From Escherichia coli (lineage in GTDB: Bacteria; Pseudomonadota; Gammaproteobacteria; Enterobacterales; Enterobacteriaceae), in assembly GCF_003018255.1 (NCBI RefSeq), contig NZ_CP027440.1: a stretch of DNA of 64,000 bases; one strand, written 5' to 3'. The stretch's first letter is position 1. Each line of letters opens with the position of its first letter. Positions 16,264-61,548 of this stretch are shown here, one piece after another. The position numbers and the translations under genes are program-made. A model generated the notes under the pieces. The model was not told the DNA's origin, ran no database searches, and saw nothing but the letters and a program-made list of their open reading frames with translations.

Positions 16264-16511
16264 AGTAAGTCCTTTCGTAAAACTTTCGTTTCATTTCGTT
16301 TTGCCTATTAACGCCTTTCTATTAAGCAAATGCAAGCCCACCTTACCCATTGGCGCAAGCTACTCTCGTTTCAGTGGCTTTCATTATGTTTCTTTTGTGA
16401 ATCAGATCAGAAAACTATTATCTTTCGTTTTATTTTTATCTCACCATGACGCAGTATCAACTGAAACAAAACGAAAGATTAATATCGCAGTAATCTGAAC
16501 TGGAGAGGAAA
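16264..16511. promoter_or_regulatory. agaR/kbaZ divergent promoters with AgaR operator repeats
   Basis: Repeated CTTTCGTTT / AAACGAAAG motifs at about 16271..16310, 16422..16436 and 16465..16478. Confidence 0.7.
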
Positions 16512-17792
16512 GTGAAACATCTGACAGAAATGGTGAGACAGCACAAAGCGGGCAAAACAAATGGGATTTATGCCGTTTGTTCCGCACATCCGCTGGTGCT
16601 GGAAGCTGCAATCCGCTACGCCAGTGCAAACCAAACGCCGTTACTGATTGAAGCAACCTCCAATCAGGTGGACCAGTTCGGCGGTTATACCGGAATGACA
16701 CCCGCCGATTTTCGCGGCTTTGTTTGTCAGCTAGCCGACTCGTTGAATTTCCCGCAGGATGCGCTGATTCTGGGTGGCGACCATCTGGGGCCAAACCGCT
16801 GGCAAAACCTGCCTGCCGCTCAGGCAATGGCCAATGCCGATGATTTGATTAAAAGCTACGTGGCGGCAGGATTCAAAAAAATTCACCTTGATTGCAGCAT
16901 GTCCTGTCAGGACGATCCGATTCCCTTAACTGATGATATCGTGGCTGAACGCGCCGCCCGTCTGGCGAAAGTGGCGGAAGAAACCTGCCGTGAACATTTT
17001 GGCGAGGCCGATCTGGTGTATGTCATTGGCACCGAAGTTCCGGTGCCTGGCGGCGCGCATGAAACCTTAAGCGAGCTGGCGGTCACCACACCGGATGCCG
17101 CCCGCGCCACACTGGAAGCCCATCGCCACGCCTTTGAAAAGCAGGGCCTGAATGCCATCTGGCCACGCATTATTGCCCTGGTGGTTCAACCCGGCGTCGA
17201 ATTCGATCACACCAACGTTATTGATTATCAGCCCGCCAAAGCGACCGCCTTAAGCCAGATGGTCGAAAACTACGAAACGCTGATTTTCGAAGCGCACTCT
17301 ACCGATTACCAAACACCGCAATCGCTGCGCCAGCTGGTGATTGACCACTTTGCCATTCTGAAAGTTGGCCCGGCGCTGACCTTTGCCCTGCGTGAAGCTC
17401 TGTTCTCTCTGGCGGCGATTGAAGAAGAACTGGTACCAGCAAAAGCCTGTTCTGGTCTGCGTCAGGTGCTGGAAAACGTGATGCTCGACCGCCCGGAATA
17501 CTGGCAAAGCCACTACCACGGTGACGGCAACGCGCGTCGTCTGGCGCGTGGTTACAGCTACTCGGACCGCGTGCGCTATTACTGGCCAGACAGCCAGATT
17601 GATGACGCTTTCGCTCATCTGGTTCGTAATCTGGCGGATTCACCAATTCCGCTGCCGCTGATCAGCCAGTATCTGCCGCTGCAGTACGTGAAAGTTCGCT
17701 CCGGCGAGCTGCAGCCAACGCTACGGGAACTCATTATCAACCATATTCAGGACATCCTGGCGCAGTACCACACAGCCTGTGAAGGCCAATAA
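16512..17792 (+). CDS. kbaZ: tagatose-bisphosphate aldolase non-catalytic subunit
   Basis: 426-aa [26 protein letters not shown]; GTG start at 16512 preceded by GGAGAGG. Confidence 0.92.
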
Positions 17793-18298: not shown

Positions 18299-19078
18299 AT
18301 GGAAATCAGTCTGTTGCAGGCATTCGCGTTGGGCATTATCGCCTTTATCGCTGGCCTGGATATGTTTAACGGCCTAACCCATATGCACCGCCCGGTGGTC
18401 CTCGGCCCGTTGGTCGGGCTGGTACTTGGCGATCTGCATACCGGTATTTTAACCGGCGGTACGCTGGAACTGGTGTGGATGGGGCTGGCCCCGCTGGCGG
18501 GCGCACAGCCGCCTAACGTGATTATCGGTACTATCGTCGGCACGGCGTTTGCCATTACTACTGGCGTGAAACCCGATGTTGCAGTCGGTGTCGCCGTACC
18601 TTTCGCTGTCGCAGTACAGATGGGGATTACCTTCCTGTTCTCGGTGATGTCTGGCGTAATGTCCCGCTGTGACCGGATGGCAGAGAACGCCGATACACGC
18701 GGCATTGAACGCGTGAACTATCTGGCACTGCTGGCACTCGGCACTTTCTATTTTCTCTGCGCTTTCCTGCCTATCTACTTCGGCGCGGAACATGCAAAAA
18801 CCATCATTGATGTCCTACCGCAACGATTAATCGACGGCCTCGGCGTCGCGGGCGGCATCATGCCAGCAATCGGTTTTGCCGTGCTGCTGAAAATCATGAT
18901 GAAAAACGTCTACATCCCCTACTTCATCCTGGGCTTTGTTGCCGCAGCCTGGCTCAAGTTACCGGTGCTGGCTATTGCTGCCGCCGCGCTGGCGATGGCG
19001 CTGATCGACCTGCTGCGTAAATCTCCTGAACCGACTCAACCTGCGGCACAGAAAGAGGAATTTGAAGATGGCATCTAA
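18299..19078 (+). CDS. agaW: PTS N-acetylgalactosamine-specific EIIC (full length)
   Basis: 259-aa membrane ORF, uninterrupted; mannose-family IIC; overlaps agaE by 17 nt. Confidence 0.85.
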   Translation: MEISLLQAFALGIIAFIAGLDMFNGLTHMHRPVVLGPLVGLVLGDLHTGILTGGTLELVWMGLAPLAGAQPPNVIIGTIVGTAFAITTGVKPDVAVGVAVPFAVAVQMGITFLFSVMSGVMSRCDRMAENADTRGIERVNYLALLALGTFYFLCAFLPIYFGAEHAKTIIDVLPQRLIDGLGVAGGIMPAIGFAVLLKIMMKNVYIPYFILGFVAAAWLKLPVLAIAAAALAMALIDLLRKSPEPTQPAAQKEEFEDGI

Positions 19079-19946
19079 TCAAACCACCCTGCCGAACGTC
19101 AGTGAAAACGAAGAAACACTGCTGACAGGCGTCAATGAAAACGTGTATGAAGATCAGAGCATTGGCGCAGAGCTGACGAAAAAAGATATCAACCGCGTCG
19201 CCTGGCGTTCCATGCTGTTACAAGCGTCTTTTAACTACGAACGTATGCAGGCTTCTGGCTGGTTGTACGGTCTGCTGCCTGCTCTGAAAAAGATCCACAC
19301 TAATAAACGCGACCTGGCGCGCGCCATGAAGGGGCATATGGGTTTCTTCAATACCCATCCGTTTCTGGTGACGTTTGTTATCGGCATTATCCTTGCGATG
19401 GAGCGTTCTAAGCAGGACGTTAACAGTATTCAGAGCACCAAAATTGCCGTCGGTGCGCCGCTCGGCGGGATTGGCGATGCGATGTTCTGGCTAACGCTAC
19501 TGCCGATTTGTGGCGGGATAGGCGCAAGCCTCGCGCTACAAGGCTCTATTCTTGGCGCAGTCGTCTTTATTGTGCTGTTCAACGTGGTACACCTGGGGCT
19601 GCGTTTTGGTCTGGCGCATTATGCTTACCGCATGGGCGTGGCGGCGATTCCACTCATTAAAGCGAATACCAAAAAAGTCGGCCATGCTGCGTCAATCGTT
19701 GGGATGACGGTAATCGGCGCGCTGGTGGCAACCTATGTTCGTTTAAGCACCACGCTGGAAATCACCGCTGGCGACGCAGTGGTTAAGTTACAGGCTGATG
19801 TTATCGACAAACTGATGCCAGCCTTCTTACCGCTGGTCTACACCCTGACCATGTTCTGGCTGGTACGCCGCGGCTGGAGTCCGCTGCGCCTGATTGCAGT
19901 GACCGTGGTTCTCGGCATCGTCGGTAAATTCTGCCATTTCCTTTAA
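19062..19946 (+). CDS. agaE: PTS N-acetylgalactosamine-specific EIID
   Basis: 294-aa membrane ORF following agaW; mannose-family IID. Confidence 0.85.
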   Translation: MKMASNQTTLPNVSENEETLLTGVNENVYEDQSIGAELTKKDINRVAWRSMLLQASFNYERMQASGWLYGLLPALKKIHTNKRDLARAMKGHMGFFNTHPFLVTFVIGIILAMERSKQDVNSIQSTKIAVGAPLGGIGDAMFWLTLLPICGGIGASLALQGSILGAVVFIVLFNVVHLGLRFGLAHYAYRMGVAAIPLIKANTKKVGHAASIVGMTVIGALVATYVRLSTTLEITAGDAVVKLQADVIDKLMPAFLPLVYTLTMFWLVRRGWSPLRLIAVTVVLGIVGKFCHFL

Positions 19947-19963
19947 ATACAATGAGGTATTAG

Positions 19964-20398
19964 ATGTTAAGTATTATTTTGACAGGGCATGGCGGGTTTG
20001 CCAGTGGCATGGAAAAAGCAATGAAGCAAATCCTCGGCGAGCAATCGCAGTTTATTGCCATCGATTTTCCGGAAACCTCAAGCACCGCGCTGCTTACATC
20101 GCAGCTTGAAGAGGCCATCGCCCAACTGGATTGTGAAGACGGCATTGTTTTTCTGACGGATTTGCTGGGCGGCACGCCGTTTCGCGTAGCTTCAACGCTG
20201 GCGATGCAAAAACTGGGCTGTGAAGTGATTACCGGCACCAATTTGCAACTGCTACTGGAGATGGTGCTGGAGCGCGAAGGGTTAAGCGGTGAAGAGTTTC
20301 GTGTGCAGGCGCTGGAGTGTGGACATCGTGGGCTGACCAGTCTGGTGGACGAGTTAGGCCGCTGCCATGAGGAATGTCCGGTCGAGGAAGGAATATGA
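19964..20398 (+). CDS. agaF: PTS EIIA (mannose family), shared by the Aga and Gam systems
   Basis: 144-aa ORF MLSIILTGHGGFASGMEKA; stop overlaps the agaA start (ATGA). Confidence 0.85.
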   Translation: MLSIILTGHGGFASGMEKAMKQILGEQSQFIAIDFPETSSTALLTSQLEEAIAQLDCEDGIVFLTDLLGGTPFRVASTLAMQKLGCEVITGTNLQLLLEMVLEREGLSGEEFRVQALECGHRGLTSLVDELGRCHEECPVEEGI

Positions 20399-21528
20399 CA
20401 CCCGTTTTGCGCGCCAGAAGGCTGCTGACTGAAGAGGGATGGCTCGATGACCATCAGTTGCGTATTGCTGACGGTGTAATCGCAGAAATCGAACCGATTC
20501 CAGTGGGCGTGACTGAACGCGATGCGGAACTGCTCTGCCCCGCTTACATCGACACCCATGTACACGGTGGTGCGGGCGTTGATGTAATGGATGACGCGCT
20601 GGATGTGCTCGACAAGCTGGCAATGCACAAAGCACGCGAAGGTGTCGGCAGTTGGTTACCGACCACCGTAACCGCGCCGCTTAATACCATTCATGCGGCG
20701 CTGGAACGTATTGCTCAACGTTGCCAACGCGGCGGACCTGGTGCACAAATACTGGGGAGTTATCTCGAAGGACCGTACTTCACGCCGCAGAATAAAGGCG
20801 CGCATCCGCCGGAGCTGTTTCGCGAGCTGGAAATTGCCGAGCTGGATCAATTGATTGCCGTTTCTCAGCACACCTTGCGCGTGGTGGCGCTGGCACCGGA
20901 AAAAGAAGGGGCATTGCAGGCCATCCGCCATCTTAAACAGCAAAACGTAAGGGTGATGCTGGGGCATAGCGCGGCGACCTGGCAACAAACCCGCGCCGCG
21001 TTTGATGCTGGTGCCGACGGCCTGGTGCATTGCTATAACGGGATGACAGGTTTACATCACCGCGAACCGGGAATGGTTGGCGCGGGATTAACGGACAAGC
21101 GCGCCTGGCTGGAACTGATAGCCGATGGTCATCATGTGCATCCGGCGGCGATGTCGCTGTGTTGTTGCTGTGCGAAAGAGAGAATCGTGCTGATCACCGA
21201 CGCGATGCAGGCAGCCGGGATGCCGGATGGTCGCTATACGTTATGTGGCGAAGAAGTGCAGATGCACGGTGGCGTTGTCCGTACCGCGTCCGGTGGGCTG
21301 GCGGGCAGTACGCTGTCTGTTGATGCGGCAGTGCGCAACATGGTTGAGTTGGCGGGTGTAACGCCTGCGGAAGCCATCCATATGGCATCGCTGCATCCGG
21401 CGCGTATGCTGGGTGTTGATGATGTTCTGGGATCGCTTAAACCGGGCAAACGCGCCAGCGTCGTTGCGCTGGATAGCGGGCTGCATGTGCAACAAATCTG
21501 GATTCAGGGTCAATTAGCTTCGTTTTGA
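20395..21528 (+). CDS. agaA: N-acetylgalactosamine-6-phosphate deacetylase (full length)
   Basis: ORF track 20374..21528; ATG at 20395 gives about 377 aa (MTPVLRARRLLTEEGW...); NagA-like amidohydrolase. Confidence 0.85.
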   Translation: MTPVLRARRLLTEEGWLDDHQLRIADGVIAEIEPIPVGVTERDAELLCPAYIDTHVHGGAGVDVMDDALDVLDKLAMHKAREGVGSWLPTTVTAPLNTIHAALERIAQRCQRGGPGAQILGSYLEGPYFTPQNKGAHPPELFRELEIAELDQLIAVSQHTLRVVALAPEKEGALQAIRHLKQQNVRVMLGHSAATWQQTRAAFDAGADGLVHCYNGMTGLHHREPGMVGAGLTDKRAWLELIADGHHVHPAAMSLCCCCAKERIVLITDAMQAAGMPDGRYTLCGEEVQMHGGVVRTASGGLAGSTLSVDAAVRNMVELAGVTPAEAIHMASLHPARMLGVDDVLGSLKPGKRASVVALDSGLHVQQIWIQGQLASF

Positions 21529-21539
21529 TGGTTTGCTCC

Positions 21540-21700
21540 TTTATTGGGCCTTCACTTCCCCCGTAAGGCCTTTCTTTTTCTTTCGTTTTGATCTGTGCAG
21601 CGGTGTCGGATGCGACGCTAATGCGCCTTATCCGACCTACGGTTGGTGACCGTAAGGCCGGATAAAGTATTTACGCCGCATCCAGCAATCCCTTTTACTT
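21540..21700. repeat. REP/BIME-type palindromic repeats
   Basis: Imperfect palindromes gcgccttatccgacctacg and ggccggataaag...gccgcatcc typical of E. coli REP units. Confidence 0.75.
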
Positions 21701-26939: not shown

Positions 26940-26948
26940 CTCGCCTGC

Positions 26949-26987
26949 TACAGGCGTTGCAACGCTATTCCTGCTGCGACGCCTGTA
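26949..26987. terminator. inverted repeat between convergent agaI and rsmI (probable bidirectional terminator)
   Basis: tacaggcgt ... acgcctgta arms with an internal gcgttgcaacgc palindrome inside a 49-bp spacer. Confidence 0.55.
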
Positions 26988-26988
26988 A

Positions 26989-27852
26989 TCACTCTCCCTG
27001 CTGCTCCAGCGCATACTTATACAGCGCATTTTTCTTCACGCCGTGAATTTCTGCGGCCAGCGCCGCCGCTTTTTTCAGCGGCAGTTCTGCCTGCAACAGC
27101 GCCAGCGTGCGCAGAGCATCGGCGGGTAAGTCTTCTTCCTGTGCTTTATGGCCTTCGACAATCAGCACCATTTCGCCTTTGCGACGGTTTTCATCTTCTT
27201 TGACCCACGCCAGCAGCTCGCCAACGGGCGCGCCGTGAATGGTTTCCCAGGTTTTGGTCAGCTCACGCGCCAGAACCACGTAGCGGGATTCGCCTAATAC
27301 CGCAACGATATCTTCCAGGCTATCTAACAGACGGTGGGTAGATTCATAAAAAATCAGCGTGCGCGGCTCCGCTTCAATAGCTTTTAGCGCATCACGGCGG
27401 CCTTTTGATTTGGCAGGTAAAAAGCCTTCATAACAAAAACGATCGGATGGTAAACCCGCGGCGCTTAACGCAGTGATAGCAGCACACGGCCCTGGTAGCG
27501 GCACCACGCGAATCCCCGCTTCACGACAGGTACGCACCAGATGGTAGCCAGGATCGTTAATTAGCGGCGTTCCGGCATCGGAAACCAGCGCAATGTTTTG
27601 CCCCTCTTGCAGTTTCGCCAGCAGCGTTTCGGCTTTTTGTTGTTCGTTATGGTCGTGCAGCGCAAACAACCGGGCATTAATCCCAAAATGTTGCAGCAAT
27701 AAACCGGTGTGACGCGTATCCTCGGCGGCAATCAGATCAACGGCCTGTAATACCTCTAATGCACGCTGGGTGATATCAGCCAGATTGCCGATTGGCGTCG
27801 GTACAATGTAAAGCTGGCCCTGAGAATTATCCGCCGATTGGTGTTGTTTCAT
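26989..27852 (-). CDS. rsmI: 16S rRNA (cytidine1402-2'-O)-methyltransferase
   Basis: 287-aa [31 protein letters not shown] (tetrapyrrole-methylase fold); divergent from lpoA. Confidence 0.9.
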
Positions 27853-35274: not shown

Positions 35275-35792
35275 GGTTCACCTACCGATGTCTGTTTGGT
35301 TTCAGGCGCGGTTTTCATTCCCGCCTCAACAAAATCCGCCAGTTGCAGCAGCATCATGCGTAAGGCTTTCGGCATTTGCTCCAGTTCAATGGCGTCCATC
35401 AGGTTTTTCACATACAGCCCCAGCTCCGTATCGCCTTCAATTACCAGCCGACGCTGGAAGAAGAGCGTATCCGGATCTTGTTTACGCGCCGCAATCATCA
35501 GCAGATCGCTGGCGTCGGCACTAAAACTCACATCAGCTTGCGCGTTCTGGCTAACGACCAGTTTGCCATTCACCACCGAGGTAAACCATTGCAGGTCAAT
35601 ATCACGCACATGAATACTTAACCAGCGGCCTTCAAGAAACTCCAGCTCGCCATCATCCAACGCCTGGCGGAATTGCCAGCTTAAGACCTGCTCAAGAACC
35701 TGGCGTTTTAGCGCAAATGGCGTCAGTTTTACCGGTACACTCAACAGAGATGGCCCCAAATGCACAATACGGGAACGCAGTTTATCCAACAC
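35268..35792 (-). CDS. ubiT: SCP2-domain lipid-binding protein for O2-independent ubiquinone synthesis
   Basis: ORF track 35268..35816; GTG at 35792 gives the 174-aa product M-LDKLRSRIVHLGPSLL (yhbT). Confidence 0.8.
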   Translation of the reverse strand: MLDKLRSRIVHLGPSLLSVPVKLTPFALKRQVLEQVLSWQFRQALDDGELEFLEGRWLSIHVRDIDLQWFTSVVNGKLVVSQNAQADVSFSADASDLLMIAARKQDPDTLFFQRRLVIEGDTELGLYVKNLMDAIELEQMPKALRMMLLQLADFVEAGMKTAPETKQTSVGEPC

Positions 35793-36000
35793 GAGTTTTA
35801 CTCCCTGTTTCAACAATCATCCTATTTTGCCATATCAGAAAAATAACATAGCGGTATAAATCAACAATTCCATATGAAATTGCTGCTACCACCAATACAA
35901 CTTTAACTGCCTTAAATCAAAAATTGTCGCAGCAAGGTTAACTAAAATCCCAGTTCGTTAACATTTTTGCGCTTTGATAGCGCAACCTTCAGGAAAAATT

Positions 36001-43548: not shown

Positions 43549-45684
43549 TTACTCGCCCTGTTCAGCAGCCGGAGCTTCCGGTGCTGCAGCAGGTTGAGAC
43601 TGCTCAGTCGCTTCTTTAATGCTCAGACGGATACGGCCCTGGCGATCAACTTCCAGAACTTTCACCGGTACTTCCTGACCCATCTGCAGGTAATCGGTCA
43701 CTTTCTCAACGCGTTTGTCAGCGATCTGAGAGATGTGTACCAGACCTTCTTTACCGCCGCCGATGGCAACAAATGCGCCAAAGTCAACGATACGGGTCAC
43801 TTTACCATTGTAGACGCGGCCCACTTCGATTTCTGCAGTGATCTCTTCGATACGACGAATAGCATGTTTCGCTTTCTCGCCGTCGGTCGCTGCGATTTTC
43901 ACAGTACCGTCATCTTCGATTTCGATGGTGGTGCCAGTTTCTTCGGTCAGAGCACGGATAACAGAACCGCCTTTACCGATAACGTCTTTGATCTTGTCCG
44001 GGTTGATCTTGATGGTATGGATACGCGGAGCGAACTCAGAGATATCGCCGCGCGGCGCGTTGATCGCCTGTTCCATTACGCCCAGGATATGCAGACGCGC
44101 ACCTTTAGCCTGGTTCAGCGCAACCTGCATGATCTCTTTGGTGATACCTTCAATTTTGATATCCATCTGCAATGCAGAGATACCGTCACGGGAACCCGCA
44201 ACTTTGAAGTCCATATCGCCCAGGTGATCTTCGTCGCCCAAAATGTCAGACAGTACAACGTAGTTGTCGCCTTCTTTCACCAGACCCATTGCGATACCCG
44301 CAACGGCAGCTTTGATCGGCACACCTGCGTCCATCAGCGCCAGAGACGCGCCGCACACGGAAGCCATAGAAGAGGAACCGTTGGATTCGGTGATTTCAGA
44401 CACAACACGTACGGTATACGGGAATTTGTCCATATCCGGCATGACTGCCAGCACGCCGCGCTTCGCCAGACGACCGTGACCAATTTCACGACGCTTCGGA
44501 GAACCGACCATGCCGGTTTCGCCTACAGAGTACGGAGGGAAGTTGTAGTGGAACAGGAAGGTGTCAGTACGTTCGCCCATCAGTTCATCAAGAACCTGCG
44601 CGTCACGTGCAGTACCTAGCGTTGCGGTAACCAGCGCCTGAGTTTCACCACGGGTGAACAGCGCAGAACCGTGAGTACGCGGCAGCACACCAGTACGCAC
44701 ATCCAGACCACGGATCATATCTTTTTCACGACCGTCGATACGCGGTTCGCCTGCCAGTACGCGGCTACGAACAACATTTTTCTCGATAGCGTGCAGAATT
44801 TCACCCAGTTCGTTTTCGTCCAGGGTTTCGTCTTCAGCAAGCAGTGTCGCGATGGTTTCAGATTTGATGACATCAACCTGCGCATAACGCTCTTGTTTGT
44901 CGGTGATGCGGTAAGCATCGCTCAGACGAGCTTCAGCCAGTGCAGCAACGCGCGCGTTCAGCGCTTCGTTTACCGGCTCCGGCTGCCAGTCCCAACGCGG
45001 TTTACCGGCTTCTTTCACCAGTTCATTGATGTTCTGAATAACAACCTGCTGTTGTTCATGACCGAAGACTACTGCGCCCAGCATCTGGTCTTCGCTCAGC
45101 AGTTCAGCTTCAGATTCAACCATCAGTACAGCGGCTTCAGTACCCGCAACAACCAGATCCAGTTTGCTCTCTTTCAACTCGTCCTGAGTCGGGTTCAGTA
45201 CGTACTGGTCATTGATGTAACCTACACGGGCAGCACCAATCGGGCCATTGAACGGAATACCAGACAGAGACAGGGCTGCGGAAGCACCAATCATCGCGAC
45301 GATATCCGGGTTAACCTGCGGGTTAACAGAAACCACGGTGGCGATAACCTGAACTTCGTTGACGAAGCCTTCCGGGAACAGCGGGCGAATCGGGCGGTCA
45401 ATCAGACGCGCGATCAGGGTTTCGCCTTCGCTTGGGCGGCCTTCACGACGGAAGAAGCTACCCGGGATACGACCAGCAGCGTAGGTACGCTCCTGATAGT
45501 TAACGGTCAGCGGGAAGAAGTCCTGACCTGGTTTGGCTTTTTTCTGACCAACAACGGTAACGAATACCGCAGTGTCATCCATGCTAACCATAACAGCGGC
45601 AGTAGCCTGACGAGCCATCATGCCGGTTTCCAGAGTCACGGTGTGTTGGCCGTACTGGAATTTACGAACGATCGGATTAAGCAA
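43549..45684 (-). CDS. pnp: polynucleotide phosphorylase
   Basis: ORF track 43549..45771; PNPase N-terminus (M)[20 protein letters not shown] begins at a TTG codon at 45684; KH and S1 domains at the C-terminus. Confidence 0.93.
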
Positions 45685-45930
45685 TGTAATATCCTTTCTC
45701 TTTCTTAGACAGTACCTTACGGCACTGGTGTTAATACCCGATCTTCTGCGCATCCTCGCGACTAATGACAACCCTAACCCAGCTCTATGTGGGTAAAGCC
45801 TCTCATTAGCCGCGCGAACCTCTGCAGCGGAAGATCATTCATAGCAACAATACATTAGTTTCCAGTGAATTGCTGCCGTCAGCTTGAAAAAAGGGGCCAC
45901 TCAGGCCCCCTTTTCTGAAACTCGCAAGAA
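45685..45930 (-). promoter_or_regulatory. pnp leader and rpsO terminator region
   Basis: GC-rich hairpin aaaaaaggggccactcaggccccctttt at 45887..45914 just 3' of rpsO, followed by a long structured pnp 5' UTR. Confidence 0.7.
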
Positions 45931-47694: not shown

Positions 47695-47772
47695 AATAAA
47701 TTCTCCTGACAAAAAAGGGGCTGTTAGCCCCTTTTTAAAATTAATTTCAGGTGGAAGGGCTGTTCACGTTGG

Positions 47773-47846
47773 CCTGATAAGACGCGCCAGCGTCGCATCA
47801 GGCAATCCATGCCGGATGCGGCGTAAACGCCTTATCCCGCATGGAA
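47773..47846. repeat. REP/BIME element
   Basis: ggcctgataagacgcgccagcgtcgcatcaggc ... gccggatgcggcgtaaacgccttatcc. Confidence 0.8.
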
Positions 47847-47857
47847 CCCTAAAAACC

Positions 47858-50530
47858 TTAAGCGATGGTACGTTGGATTTCGATGATTTCGAATACTTCG
47901 ATCACATCGCCAGTGCGGACGTCGTTGTAGTTCTTAACGCCGATACCACATTCCATACCGTTACGGACTTCGTTAACGTCATCTTTGAAGCGGCGCAGGG
48001 ACTCCAGCTCGCCTTCGTAGATAACCACGTTGTCGCGCAGAACGCGGATCGGGTTGTGACGTTTAACCACACCTTCGGTAACCATACAACCTGCGATGGC
48101 ACCAAATTTCGGTGATTTGAATACGTCACGAACTTCCGCCAGACCGATAATCTGTTGTTTCAGTTCCGGAGACAGCATACCGCTCATTGCCGCTTTCACT
48201 TCGTCGATCAGGTTATAGATGACGGAGTAGTAACGCAGATCCAGGCTTTCCGCTTCAATCACTTTACGTGCAGAGGCATCAGCACGTACGTTGAAGCCAA
48301 CCAGGATGGCATTGGACGCCGCAGCCAGGGTAGCGTCGGTTTCGGTGATACCACCTACGCCAGAACCGATGATCTTCACTTTAACTTCGTCAGTAGACAG
48401 TTTCAGCAAGGAGTCGGAGATAGCTTCCACAGAACCCTGTACGTCTGCCTTCAGGACGATATTCACTTCGTGAACTTCGCCTTCGGTCATGTTGGCGAAC
48501 ATGTTCTCGAGTTTAGATTTCTGCTGACGCGCCAGTTTAACTTCGCGGAATTTACCCTGACGATAGAGTGCAACTTCACGCGCTTTCTTCTCGTCACGTA
48601 CAACGGTAACTTCATCACCCGCAGCCGGAACGCCGGACAGGCCGAGGATTTCCACCGGAATGGACGGACCCGCTTCCAGCACTTCCTGACCCAGTTCGTT
48701 GCGCATCGCACGAACACGACCGTATTCGAAGCCACACAGAACGATATCGCCCTTGTGCAGAGTACCTTCACGTACCAGAACGGTAGCAACCGGACCACGA
48801 CCTTTATCGAGGAAGGATTCGATAACCGCACCGCTCGCCATACCTTTACGTACCGCTTTCAGTTCCAGAACTTCCGCCTGCAGCAGGATAGCGTCCAGCA
48901 GCTCATCGATACCAGTACCCGCTTTCGCAGACACATGTACGAACTGGCTTTCACCGCCCCACTCTTCCGGCAGGATGCCGTACTGGGAGAGTTCGTTCTT
49001 AACGCGATCCGGATCGGCTTCTGGTTTATCGATCTTGTTCACTGCAACCACCACCGGAACCTGCGCCGCTTTCGCGTGCTGGATTGCTTCGATGGTCTGC
49101 GGCATTACGCCGTCGTCGGCAGCAACAACCAGGACTACGATGTCCGTTGCCTGCGCACCACGAGCACGCATTGAAGTAAACGCGGCGTGCCCCGGGGTGT
49201 CCAGGAAGGTGATCATGCCGTTTTCAGTTTCAACGTGGTATGCACCAATGTGCTGGGTAATGCCGCCCGCTTCGCCAGAGGCCACTTTCGTTGAACGAAT
49301 GTAGTCCAGCAGAGAGGTTTTACCGTGGTCAACGTGACCCATGATGGTCACAACCGGCGCGCGCGGTTCAGCCGCTGCACCCGTGTCACGGTCGCTCATT
49401 ACCGCTTCTTCCAACTCGTTTTCACGACGCAGGATAACTTTGTGGCCCATCTCTTCAGCAACCAGCTGTGCGGTTTCCTGATCGATAACCTGGTTGATGG
49501 TTGCCATTGCGCCCAGTTTCATCATCGCTTTGATGACCTGAGAGCCTTTAACCGCCATCTTGTTCGCCAGTTCGCCAACGGTGATGGTTTCGCCGATCAC
49601 AACGTCACGGTTAACGGCCTGAGCAGGCTTCTGGAAGCCTTGCTGCAGCGAAGAACCTTTACGTTTTCCGCCCTTACCGCCACGTACTGCTGCGCGTGCT
49701 TCTTCACGATCAGCTTTTGATTCAGCGTGTTTGTTGCCTTTCTTCGGACGCGCAGCTTTCGCGTTACGACCACGGCCACGGCCGCCTTCGACTTCACGAT
49801 CGCTTTCGTCTTCTGCCTGGCGAGCATGTTGAGAAGTAGTAACGTGATAATCGCTGGAATCTTCAGTCGGTTCCGCGTTATCAGTCCATTTGTTTTCTTC
49901 CGCCATACGACGTGCTTCTTCAGCAACGCGACGTGCTTCTTCTTCGAGTTTACGACGCGCTTCTTCTTCGGCTTTACGCTTGAGCTCTGCAGCTTCCTGC
50001 TCACGGCGGGCTTTTTCAGCCTGGGCGTTTTTAGTCATATCGTCTTGTTGATTGCTCACTTTGTCTTTTTCCGCAGCTTCACGTTTCGCTTGTTCAGCAG
50101 CTTCACGCTTAGCTTGTTCTGCGGCCTCACGTTCAGCTTTTTGTTGCGCCTCACGTTTGGCCGATTCTTCTGCCTCACGACGGGCTTGCTCTTCCGCTTC
50201 ACGCTGCGCTTGCTCTTCCGCAGCAAGGCGTTCAGCCTCTTGCGGATCGCGTTTCACAAAGGTGCGTTTCTTGCGGACTTCGATTTGTACCGATTTGCTT
50301 TTTCCACCGGTACCAGGAATGTTAAGGGTGCTGCGTGTTTTACGTTGCAGCGTCAATTTGTCCGGGCCTGAATTTTTCTGATTCAGGTGGTCAATCAAAG
50401 TCTGTTTCTCTTGTGCAGACACAGAGTCGTCAGCAGACTTCCGGATACCTGCATCAGCAAATTGCTGTACCAGGCGTTCCACGGAGGTCTGTCGCTCTGC
50501 GGCCAGCGTTTTAATCGTTACATCTGTCAT
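47858..50530 (-). CDS. infB: translation initiation factor IF-2
   Basis: 890-aa [32 protein letters not shown]; GTPase motifs; charged repeat-rich N-terminal region. Confidence 0.97.
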
Positions 50531-52069: not shown

Positions 52070-52522
52070 TTAAAAGTGGGGAACCAGGTTCGCCTTCTGG
52101 ATATTACTCAGCGCGAACACTTCATCTTTACCTTCGACGGTAACTGTGATCATTTCACCGTCTACCGCTTTGATAACGCCCTGCCATTTACGACGGTTTT
52201 GTACCGCCATGCGGAGAACCAGAGTCACCTCTTCTCCGACGAAACGGGCGTAGTGTTCAGCCGTGAACAGTGGGCGATCGAGACCCGGTGAGGAGACTTC
52301 CAGGTTATAAGCAACGGTGATGGGATCTTCAACATCCAGCACAGCACTTACCTGGTGGCTCACATCAGCACAATCATCAACATTGATGCCATCTTCACTA
52401 TCAATATAGATGCGCAGTGTGGATGTGCGACCGCGAATAAATTCGATGCCAACCAGTTCAAAACCCAGGGCCTCAACTGGCGCAGTAATCATCTCTGTTA
52501 ATTTTTGCTCTAATGTGGACAA
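52070..52522 (-). CDS. rimP: ribosome maturation factor RimP
   Basis: ORF track 52070..52534; the 150-aa product (M)[27 protein letters not shown] begins at the TTG at 52522. Confidence 0.88.
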
Positions 52523-52582
52523 GCCCACCCCCAAGACATAAAAAAAGGGCCTAAAGCCCAGTTATTCTGTAGTCAGATAACA

Positions 52583-52608
52583 AAAAACCCCGATAAATCG
52601 GGGCTTTA
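52583..52608 (-). terminator. hairpin with U-run between metY and rimP (probable partial terminator/attenuator)
   Basis: Plus strand aaaaaaccccgataaatcggggcttt; on the minus strand a 6-bp GC stem followed by Ts. Confidence 0.55.
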
Positions 52609-52728
52609 TATAACTGAACCCTATAACCGCAACTGCGGTCTGGAGCACTTTCCAGAAGGATTTTTTCAAATCCCACTACGAAGGCCGAAGTCTTCACAGT
52701 ATATTTGAAAAAGGACTCTAAGGGAAAG

Positions 52729-59514: not shown

Positions 59515-61449
59515 TTACTTGTCGCCTAACTGCTCTGACATGGTGTTACCCGGGTTCGGCGTACGCGGTTCATCAACCGGACGAGGAGCCTTTGGACTAC
59601 CATTGTCGCCAGAATTGTTAGAAGCGCCTGGTTCTTCCCAGCCCGCTGGCGGACGTACATCGCGACGTGCCATCAGGTCATCAATCTGCGGTGCGTCGAT
59701 AGTCTCATATTTCATGAGAGCATCTTTCATCGCATGCAGTATATCCATATTGTCGGTCAGAAGCTGACGCGCACGATTATAGTTGCGCTCAATCAGTGCT
59801 TTCACTTCCTGGTCGATGATACGTGCAGTTTCATCGGACATATGTTTCGCCTTCGCTACGCTACGGCCGAGGAACACTTCACCTTCTTCTTCCGCGTACA
59901 GCAGTGGACCCAATTTCTCAGAGAAGCCCCACTGAGTCACCATGTTACGTGCCAGGTTGGTCGCAACTTTAATATCGTTGGACGCACCGGTAGAAACATG
60001 TTCCGGCCCGTAGATGATCTCTTCTGCCAGACGACCACCGTACAGCGTAGAAATCTGGCTTTCCAGTTTCTGACGGCTAGCGCTGATTGCGTCGCCCTCA
60101 GGCAAGAAGAAAGTCACACCCAGCGCACGACCGCGTGGGATAATCGTCACTTTGTGCACCGGATCATGTTCCGGCACCAGGCGACCGATAATCGCATGAC
60201 CCGCTTCGTGGTAAGCCGTCGATTCTTTCTGCGCTTCCGTCATCACCATGGAGCGACGTTCCGCACCCATCATGATTTTGTCTTTCGCTTTCTCGAACTC
60301 AACCATCGACACAACGCGTTTGTTGCCACGAGCAGCGAACAGTGCCGCTTCGTTCACCAGGTTCGCCAGGTCAGCACCGGAGAAACCAGGAGTACCACGG
60401 GCAATGATTGCCGCGTCGATATCGGGTGCCAATGGTACGCGACGCATGTGAACTTTCAGGATCTGTTCACGACCGCGAACATCTGGCAAGCCAACCACAA
60501 CCTGACGGTCGAAACGGCCAGGACGCAGCAGCGCCGGGTCGAGAACGTCCGGACGGTTAGTCGCGGCGATAACGATGATACCTTCGTTACCTTCGAAGCC
60601 ATCCATCTCAACCAGCATCTGGTTCAGAGTCTGTTCACGTTCATCGTGACCACCGCCCAGACCTGCGCCACGCTGGCGGCCTACGGCGTCGATTTCATCG
60701 ATAAAGATGATGCAGGGTGCCGCTTTCTTCGCCTGTTCGAACATGTCACGAACACGGGATGCACCCACACCGACGAACATTTCTACGAAGTCAGAACCGG
60801 AGATAGTAAAGAACGGAACTTTCGCTTCGCCTGCAATCGCTTTCGCCAGCAACGTTTTACCGGTACCCGGAGGACCGACCATCAGGACGCCTTTCGGGAT
60901 CTTACCGCCGAGTTTCTGGAAGCGGCTCGGCTCGCGCAGATACTCAACCAGTTCAGCAACTTCTTCTTTTGCTTCGTCGCAGCCCGCAACGTCAGCAAAG
61001 GTCGTTTTGATCTGATCTTCAGTCAGCATGCGCGCTTTGCTCTTACCAAACGACATGGCACCTTTGCCACCGCCGCCCTGCATTTGACGCATGAAGAAGA
61101 TCCAGACACCAATCAGCAACAGCATCGGGAACCAGGAGATGAAGATAGAAGCCAGCAGGCTTGGTTCTTCAGGCGGTTCACCGACAACCTTGACGTTCTT
61201 GGTCAACAAGTTATCCAGTAATTTCGGATCCTGAACCGGAATGTAAGTGGTATAACGGTTACTATCTTTCTTGGTAACGTTGATTTCACGTCCGTTGATA
61301 CGCGCTTCACGAACCTGGTCGTTATTGACCTCTTGTAGGAAGGTAGAGTAATCCACCTTACGGCCATTAGACTCGCTGGGCCCAAAGCTCTGGAATACTG
61401 ACATCAGCACAACGGCAATGACCAGCCAGAGTATTAGGTTTTTCGCCAT
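59515..61449 (-). CDS. ftsH: ATP-dependent zinc metalloprotease FtsH (AAA+)
   Basis: ORF track to 61458; [19 protein letters not shown] from the ATG at 61449; Walker A GPPGTGKT and zinc-binding HEAGH motif. Confidence 0.96.
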
Positions 61450-61548
61450 GTCACTCAAGGGATTAACCTCTTATTACAACTGTGTTAAAAACAGCGTCAG
61501 GATACTCTATATCCAGCATCTTTCAAACTTTCGTCTGAAATCTCCCGG

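Follow-up and report, generated by a model that had tools for sequence, protein, structure and literature searches.

The GUG codons of kbaZ, diaA and ubiT and the UUG codons of pnp and rimP are very probably ordinary near-cognate initiation codons and the true starts of these genes, with infB carrying a further, internal GUG for IF2-beta. Each GUG or UUG is placed about 4-9 nt 3' of a predicted Shine-Dalgarno (SD) element and would be decoded by initiator fMet-tRNA, giving a protein that starts with formyl-Met. The pairing of a weak codon with a good SD may make initiation slower or more easily repressed, a state that selection would then have retained.

An earlier note on this DNA had assigned GTG starts to kbaZ (16512, +, with GGAGAGG upstream) and to ubiT, also called yhbT (35792, −), and TTG starts to pnp (45684, −) and rimP (52522, −). 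All four assignments hold when the sequence is read, the minus-strand codons appearing as CAC at 35790-35792 and CAA at 45682-45684 and 52520-52522. Each is also the annotated start in RefSeq/PGAP and K-12, and pnp is further backed by a toeprint, a mutant and an N-terminal peptide. The same codons are used in K-12 MG1655 (kbaZ b3132 at 3278914, ubiT b3157 at 3301276, pnp b3164, rimP b3170 at 3318006). These four starts are already in curated annotation and there is nothing new in their existence; that of pnp, a UUG, has been familiar for decades and is, like the IF2-beta GUG, a textbook case. The list of four was incomplete, omitting the GTG of diaA (30326; 3295809 in K-12) and the internal IF2-beta GTG of infB (50059), both of which belong among the non-AUG starts. 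The N-terminus annotation of the window is trustworthy, and the one modest addition made here is to document that the UUG codons of pnp and rimP are invariant across genera. Coordinates are collected in Table 1.

Table 1. Start codons, Shine-Dalgarno elements and leader features at the non-ATG starts (window coordinates; energies are for anti-SD duplexes).
Feature	Position	Strand	Evidence or remark
kbaZ Shine-Dalgarno GGAGAGG	16502..16508	+	best anti-SD duplex −6.4 kcal/mol, ends 5 nt before GTG
kbaZ GTG initiation codon	16512..16514	+	annotated start in RefSeq and K-12
diaA GTG initiation codon	30326..30328	+	annotated start; absent from earlier note
ubiT (yhbT) GTG initiation codon	35790..35792	−	annotated start; GTG in 72/74 sequences
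ubiT Shine-Dalgarno GGGAGT	35800..35805	−	duplex −7.7 kcal/mol, canonical spacing to GTG
pnp TTG initiation codon	45682..45684	−	annotated start; toeprint; N-terminal peptide
pnp Shine-Dalgarno AAGGA	45692..45696	−	positions −12 to −8 nearly invariant, 74 sequences
pnp in-frame upstream ATG (−69), not a start	45751..45753	−	SD match poor, −2.2 kcal/mol
SraG antisense sRNA (RF00082)	45743-45914	+	Rfam match; overlaps pnp 5' UTR
infB internal GTG, codon 158, IF2-beta start	50057..50059	−	read in window; K-12 annotation; absent from earlier note
rimP TTG initiation codon	52520..52522	−	annotated start; K-12 protein version NP_417639.6
rimP Shine-Dalgarno GGGGGTG (GGAGGTG in some genera)	52526..52532	−	duplex −9.7 kcal/mol; holds in-frame GTG −6
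rimP leader RNA motif (Rfam RF01770)	52540..52640	−	cmscan 102 bits vs gathering threshold 47

Gene content and frequency of non-ATG starts

The window, by which we mean the whole 64,000-nt stretch analysed, is a segment of the E. coli chromosome with 99.9-100 % identity to complete E. coli genomes by megablast, and its counterpart in K-12 MG1655 lies at 3.277-3.326 Mb. It holds, in order, tdc, gar, prlF-yhaV, agaR, the aga operon, rsmI, lpoA-yraN-diaA-dolP, yraQR, yhbOPQS, ubiTUV, yhbW and mtr, followed by deaD, nlpI, pnp, rpsO, truB, rbfA, infB, nusA, rimP, metY, argG, yhbX, secG, glmM, folP, ftsH, rlmE, yhbY, greA and dacB. The aga operon is intact here (agaW, agaE, agaF and agaA/nagA; 18299-21555), whereas agaW and agaA are pseudogenes in K-12, and the yraHIJK fimbrial operon, which in K-12 separates agaI from rsmI, is missing (26940-26990). 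A match to naRNA4, a nucleoid-associated ncRNA of REP type (RF02564, 77 bits), lies between rbfA and infB at 47771-47841 (−).

To obtain CDS starts, the coding sequences annotated in the two nearest RefSeq genomes were mapped to the window. The resulting 62 starts comprise 57 ATG, three GTG and two TTG, so that 5/62 (8 %) of primary starts are non-ATG. The norm for E. coli is ~17 %, with ATG, GTG and TTG at 83, 14 and 3 % of start codons (bioRxiv 10.1101/063800). Against these proportions the window is slightly depleted in non-ATG starts (P = 0.036 for five or fewer), and the presence of two TTG starts is unremarkable (P = 0.56 for two or more). With a frequency of 8 % where ~17 % is expected, the non-AUG starts of the window are therefore genomic background, without local enrichment, and not a local peculiarity.

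Placement of the starts

SD duplex energies at the five primary starts range from −5.4 to −9.7 kcal/mol, versus 0 to −4.7 kcal/mol for the alternative in-frame candidates. At each site the SD is the best among in-frame candidates, with the exception of a TTG at +3 in ubiT that shares the same SD. The mean SD energy is −7.0 kcal/mol for the five non-ATG genes as compared to −5.2 kcal/mol for the 57 ATG genes (one-sided P = 0.043, n = 5), in agreement with the reported compensation trend by which strong SDs tend to accompany weak starts (Belinky et al., PMC5622118). All five NTG codons stand at the 5' end of their open reading frames, where orthologues start in cross-genus comparison. No in-frame start lies upstream in kbaZ or diaA, those in pnp and ubiT are not conserved, and rimP is a partial case, with a conserved GTG at −6 inside its SD. 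On these sequence grounds we regard the positions of all five starts as well supported. Direct experimental evidence of initiation is confined to the pnp TTG and the IF2-beta GTG; the other starts rest on SD geometry, non-conserved alternatives and orthologues.

The main challenge to these placements is that some of the non-ATG starts are mis-annotated and that the real start is an in-frame ATG elsewhere (pnp −69, kbaZ +18, rimP +30, diaA +93). Such ATGs do occur in the window, and the protein-version revisions NP_417633.4 and NP_417639.6 indicate that these starts were formerly disputed. Nonetheless, the four ATG alternatives all lack an SD, and with the gene-specific evidence below we consider mis-annotation extremely improbable; for pnp it is already refuted.

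No ATG, GTG or TTG lies between an in-frame TAA at −21 and the kbaZ GTG. The sole alternative, the ATG at codon 7 (+18), was rejected; it has no SD and is not conserved in Klebsiella, where codon 7 is TTG. Klebsiella has the same SD-region sequence, ctggagaggaaaGTG, and GTG at the equal position, and where E. coli has its GTG, the more distant orthologues of Proteus, Vibrio and Photobacterium carry an ATG. The diaA reading frame is bounded by an in-frame TAA at −18, and its next in-frame candidate is the ATG at +93 (codon 32), use of which would delete 31 conserved N-terminal residues. The diaA start is GTG in Salmonella, Klebsiella, Enterobacter and Proteus, and ATG in Aeromonas. Outgroup sequences were drawn from chromosomes misplaced in the plasmid collection.

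For ubiT, pnp, infB and rimP, a scan of species-representative genomes with NlpI and 10-kb flanks yielded 80 loci, all from Enterobacteriaceae except a few from Erwiniaceae; all counts given for these genes include the window. At the homologous ubiT start position, the 74 sequences have GTG apart from two with ATG, and the SD core GGAG is conserved at −12 to −9. The in-frame neighbours of the GTG are a TGA at −27, TTGs at −24 and −21, and the TTG at +3. The upstream TTGs were rejected as not conserved. The adjacent TTG was rejected as well: codon 2 varies among TTG, TTA, CTG and TTC, and the adjacent TTG is therefore not the start.

The pnp start has been mapped by experiment. A 30S/tRNAfMet toeprint lies at +15 relative to the UUG, and pnp translation was abolished by mutating the TTG to TGA (Fontaine et al., PMC5029454). 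The TRAINSPOTTER study, whose Table S1 holds initiation-indicative (formyl-Met-derived) N-termini recovered after deformylation, lists the peptide MLNPIVR (residues 1-7; K-12 3311168-3311166) and labels the codon TTG/near-cognate/dbTIS, flagged too by Ribo-RET, INRI-seq and REPARATION (PMC13245402). The check proposed in the earlier note, N-terminal proteomics or ribosome profiling, has a published answer for pnp, with both the peptide and the Ribo-RET flag at the TTG. All 74 Enterobacteriaceae and Erwiniaceae sequences start with TTG. Among outgroups, Proteus also starts with TTG, Aeromonas uses a GTG placed one codon further downstream, and Neisseria and Acinetobacter have an ATG within a codon of the position. 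The leader above the SD, the spacer between SD and start, and the third base of codon 2 vary freely around a nearly invariant AAGGA and a constant TTG. The ATG at −69 was rejected; it occurs in the window and E. albertii only (2/74), the frame leading to the TTG is interrupted by stops in many species (15-39 nt before the TTG), and the experiments map the TTG. We take this ATG to be the origin of the 734-aa product in early K-12 annotations.

Three infB products are annotated in K-12, and the IF2-beta' ATG is found at 50038 in the window. N-terminal peptides of IF2 starting at GTG158 (MSNQQDD...) and at ATG165 have been published (PMC13245402, Table S2). After correction of three one-codon offsets, the IF2-beta codon is GTG in 60/61 sequences and TTG in 1/61, the single TTG belonging to Enterobacter sp. 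BIGb0383.

The rimP start is TTG in 58/58 sequences, and also in Proteus and Aeromonas, the latter with the SD GGAGGGTGA; in Acinetobacter the start is an ATG two codons upstream. The rimP SD is the second strongest among the 62 genes of the window. Over the 58 sequences its position −8 changed twice (G to A) and the other six positions never. The core of this SD stops 5 nt short of the TTG and directly adjoins the in-frame GTG at −6, and it could be argued that RimP begins two codons earlier at that GTG, as a 152-aa protein (MGLSTLEQ...), or that both codons are used. The GTG is indeed present in 58/58 sequences as well as in Proteus and Aeromonas, and the K-12 RimP protein record has been revised six times. 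However, the GTG is part of the SD itself (GGRGGTG), which explains its conservation, and no purine-rich element lies at a usable distance upstream of it (duplex −0.9 kcal/mol vs −9.7 kcal/mol for the TTG). The codon between GTG and TTG changes non-synonymously (GGC, GGT, GCG, GAA, GAC, GCT), and MSTLEQ is the RimP N-terminus adopted in curated K-12 annotation, in PGAP and by the PDB depositors. The PDB entries of E. coli RimP (MSTLEQ...) are recombinant constructs, and hence not independent evidence. We find the earlier start improbable and retain the TTG. Two further candidates were rejected: a TTG at −12, present in 53/58 sequences, with CTG, TCG or CCG in its place in the other five, and an ATG at −30, present in 26/58 sequences and sitting in the loop of a terminator hairpin.

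In the TRAINSPOTTER N-terminomics table (PMC13245402), rimP, kbaZ, ubiT and diaA are absent, the rows running from nusA to argG. A search of supplements of TetRP, INRI-seq, the Ribo-RET preprint and Salmonella riboproteogenomics likewise yielded no start-site data for these four genes, the INRI-seq supplement listing just an out-of-frame ATT near rimP; of the genes with non-ATG starts, data came to light for pnp and infB alone. The mBio paper on UbiUVT does not comment on the ubiT GTG.

A separate observation concerns ftsH. An in-frame TTG at 61456-61458 (−) lies 9 nt upstream of the annotated ATG at 61449 (…AAGAGGTTAATCCCTTGAGTGACATG), and the SD AAGAGGT is 7-8 nt from this TTG and ~16 nt from the ATG. 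The TTG at −9 appears in the INRI-seq supplement, and FtsH is absent from the TRAINSPOTTER N-terminomics table. It may be a further non-AUG start, or one used instead of the ATG, with the product MSDMAKN….

Retention of the weak codons

Changes were counted by parsimony on a neighbour-joining tree built from the pnp codon alignment. Four-fold degenerate sites changed 14.1 (pnp), 11.1 (rimP) and 17.4 (ubiT) times on average, as compared to 0, 0 and 1 changes at the first base of the respective start codons on the same tree; just 4/264 four-fold sites in pnp are unchanged. Because CTG is unusable as a start and the usable changes are T-to-A or T-to-G, the TTG codons were compared on transversions only. 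By this measure 28 % of four-fold sites in pnp and 26 % in rimP are themselves transversion-free, and the single-site test for TTG is thus not significant. The unconstrained positions −15 to −20 of the pnp leader carry 9-15 transversions each, and next to them the invariance of the TTG is striking. In rimP the conservation of the TTG is less informative, since the region upstream is highly conserved throughout as a structured leader.

The retention of GTG in ubiT is more convincing than the pnp or rimP case because ATG is only one transition away. That transition occurred once, where four-fold sites have a median of 18.5 changes. The two ubiT sequences with ATG come from Citrobacter sp. JGM124 and Klebsiella sp. 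BIGb0407, in which GGGAGT is lost and the SD is degenerate (cAGGtt). This combination looks like a reciprocal compensation between start codon and SD in one lineage, arising as a single evolutionary event.

UUG-to-AUG and GUG-to-AUG switches normally exceed the neutral expectation (Belinky et al., PMC5622118). The lack of ATG switches at the starts of the window runs counter to this trend and points to gene-specific constraint. These comparisons amount to moderate evidence, not proof, that the weak start codons are retained on purpose.

The five starts could also be real but neutral, historical accidents at rarely mutating sites that have no tuning or regulatory role. This account is possible, if somewhat doubtful. 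The frequency of non-ATG starts in the window is at or under the genome norm, 26-40 % of comparable four-fold sites are also transversion-free on the same tree, and kbaZ, diaA and pnp orthologues of more distant genera function with ATG. It sits less well with an any-change rate of 11-17 per four-fold site and with the transversions at the free pnp leader positions, and it has to accommodate both the single ubiT switch and the way in which ATG-ward switches are usually favoured. The sole ubiT lineage that did switch is, moreover, one without a strong SD.

A reading in which selection keeps the weak codons would leave room for a role in expression. That the starts other than that of pnp tune expression, as the earlier note proposed, is a hypothesis with which the strict TTG and GTG conservation would be consistent. 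From the outgroup codons in Proteus and Aeromonas, we date the non-ATG state as old in pnp and rimP, reaching back to the Enterobacterales-Aeromonadales split; it appears younger in kbaZ. Across Enterobacterales, pnp and rimP have retained UUG despite the usual drift towards AUG, and the two codons are good candidates for testing whether weak codons are maintained for regulation.

The rimP and pnp leaders and comparison with known systems

The rimP leader motif is found between metY and rimP, its end 18 nt short of the TTG. Within it, two hairpins that resemble terminators (52607-52584 and 52559-52547) are each followed by a T-run. A PIRT-seq study described an unvalidated small CDS (CDS115) that is co-conserved with rimP and was suggested to be a leader peptide (PMC12350097); CDS115 was not located. 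Behind the leader attenuator, the rimP UUG would determine how much is made from the first cistron in proportion to nusA and infB. That it sets RimP versus NusA/IF2 output in this way, or joins leader-dependent control, is speculation.

The operon has the metY initiator tRNA upstream and nusA and infB (IF2) downstream, a translation-related setting comparable to infC. It is conceivable, though we think it unlikely, that the rimP UUG acts as a sensor of initiation capacity, with infC-like feedback on IF2. Limiting fMet-tRNA or IF2, or an excess of IF3, would lead to poor initiation at the UUG, and this could in turn alter translation-coupled read-through or mRNA stability of nusA-infB. The parallel in pnp would be a UUG whose slow initiation lets CsrA, PNPase or SraG prevail at the ribosome-binding site.

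The pnp leader is subject to RNase III cleavage, trimming by PNPase, CsrA binding over the SD, competition between PNPase and S1, and antisense pairing with SraG (PMC5029454). The earlier note had described the weak pnp start as a known contributor to translational autoregulation. In the accessible literature no such role is assigned to the UUG, the published account crediting RNase III, PNPase, CsrA, S1 and SraG (PMC5029454), and the statement may be a conflation with infC. A slow-starting UUG would plausibly make it easier for CsrA, PNPase/S1 and SraG to outcompete the ribosome at its binding site. The true 5' end of SraG lies 42 nt further upstream than annotated (PMC5029454), which would bring SraG next to the pnp SD. 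Besides SraG, the S15 leader is present in the window.

Among known systems, the closest to the pnp start of the window is pnp itself, in which the known UUG stands in the rpsO-pnp leader controlled by RNase III, PNPase, CsrA and SraG; gene and codon are identical. The AUU of infC is the textbook case of start-codon-based autoregulation. It resembles the pnp and rimP starts in being a weak codon that opens a gene connected with translation. The infC product, IF3, discriminates against its own start codon, a link that is not known for pnp or rimP, and the UUG of both genes is a far better start codon than the infC AUU. AUU starts are mentioned for infC and pcnB in bioRxiv 10.1101/063800. The IF2 isoforms from GUG158 and AUG165 provide a proven non-AUG start, but one that is internal and yields a second isoform, unlike the primary gene starts discussed here. 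Overall, the annotated GUG and UUG starts of E. coli (about 14 % and 3 % of genes, respectively) are characterized by an NTG codon, canonical SD spacing and initiation with fMet, and the five genes belong to this class without any difference from it.
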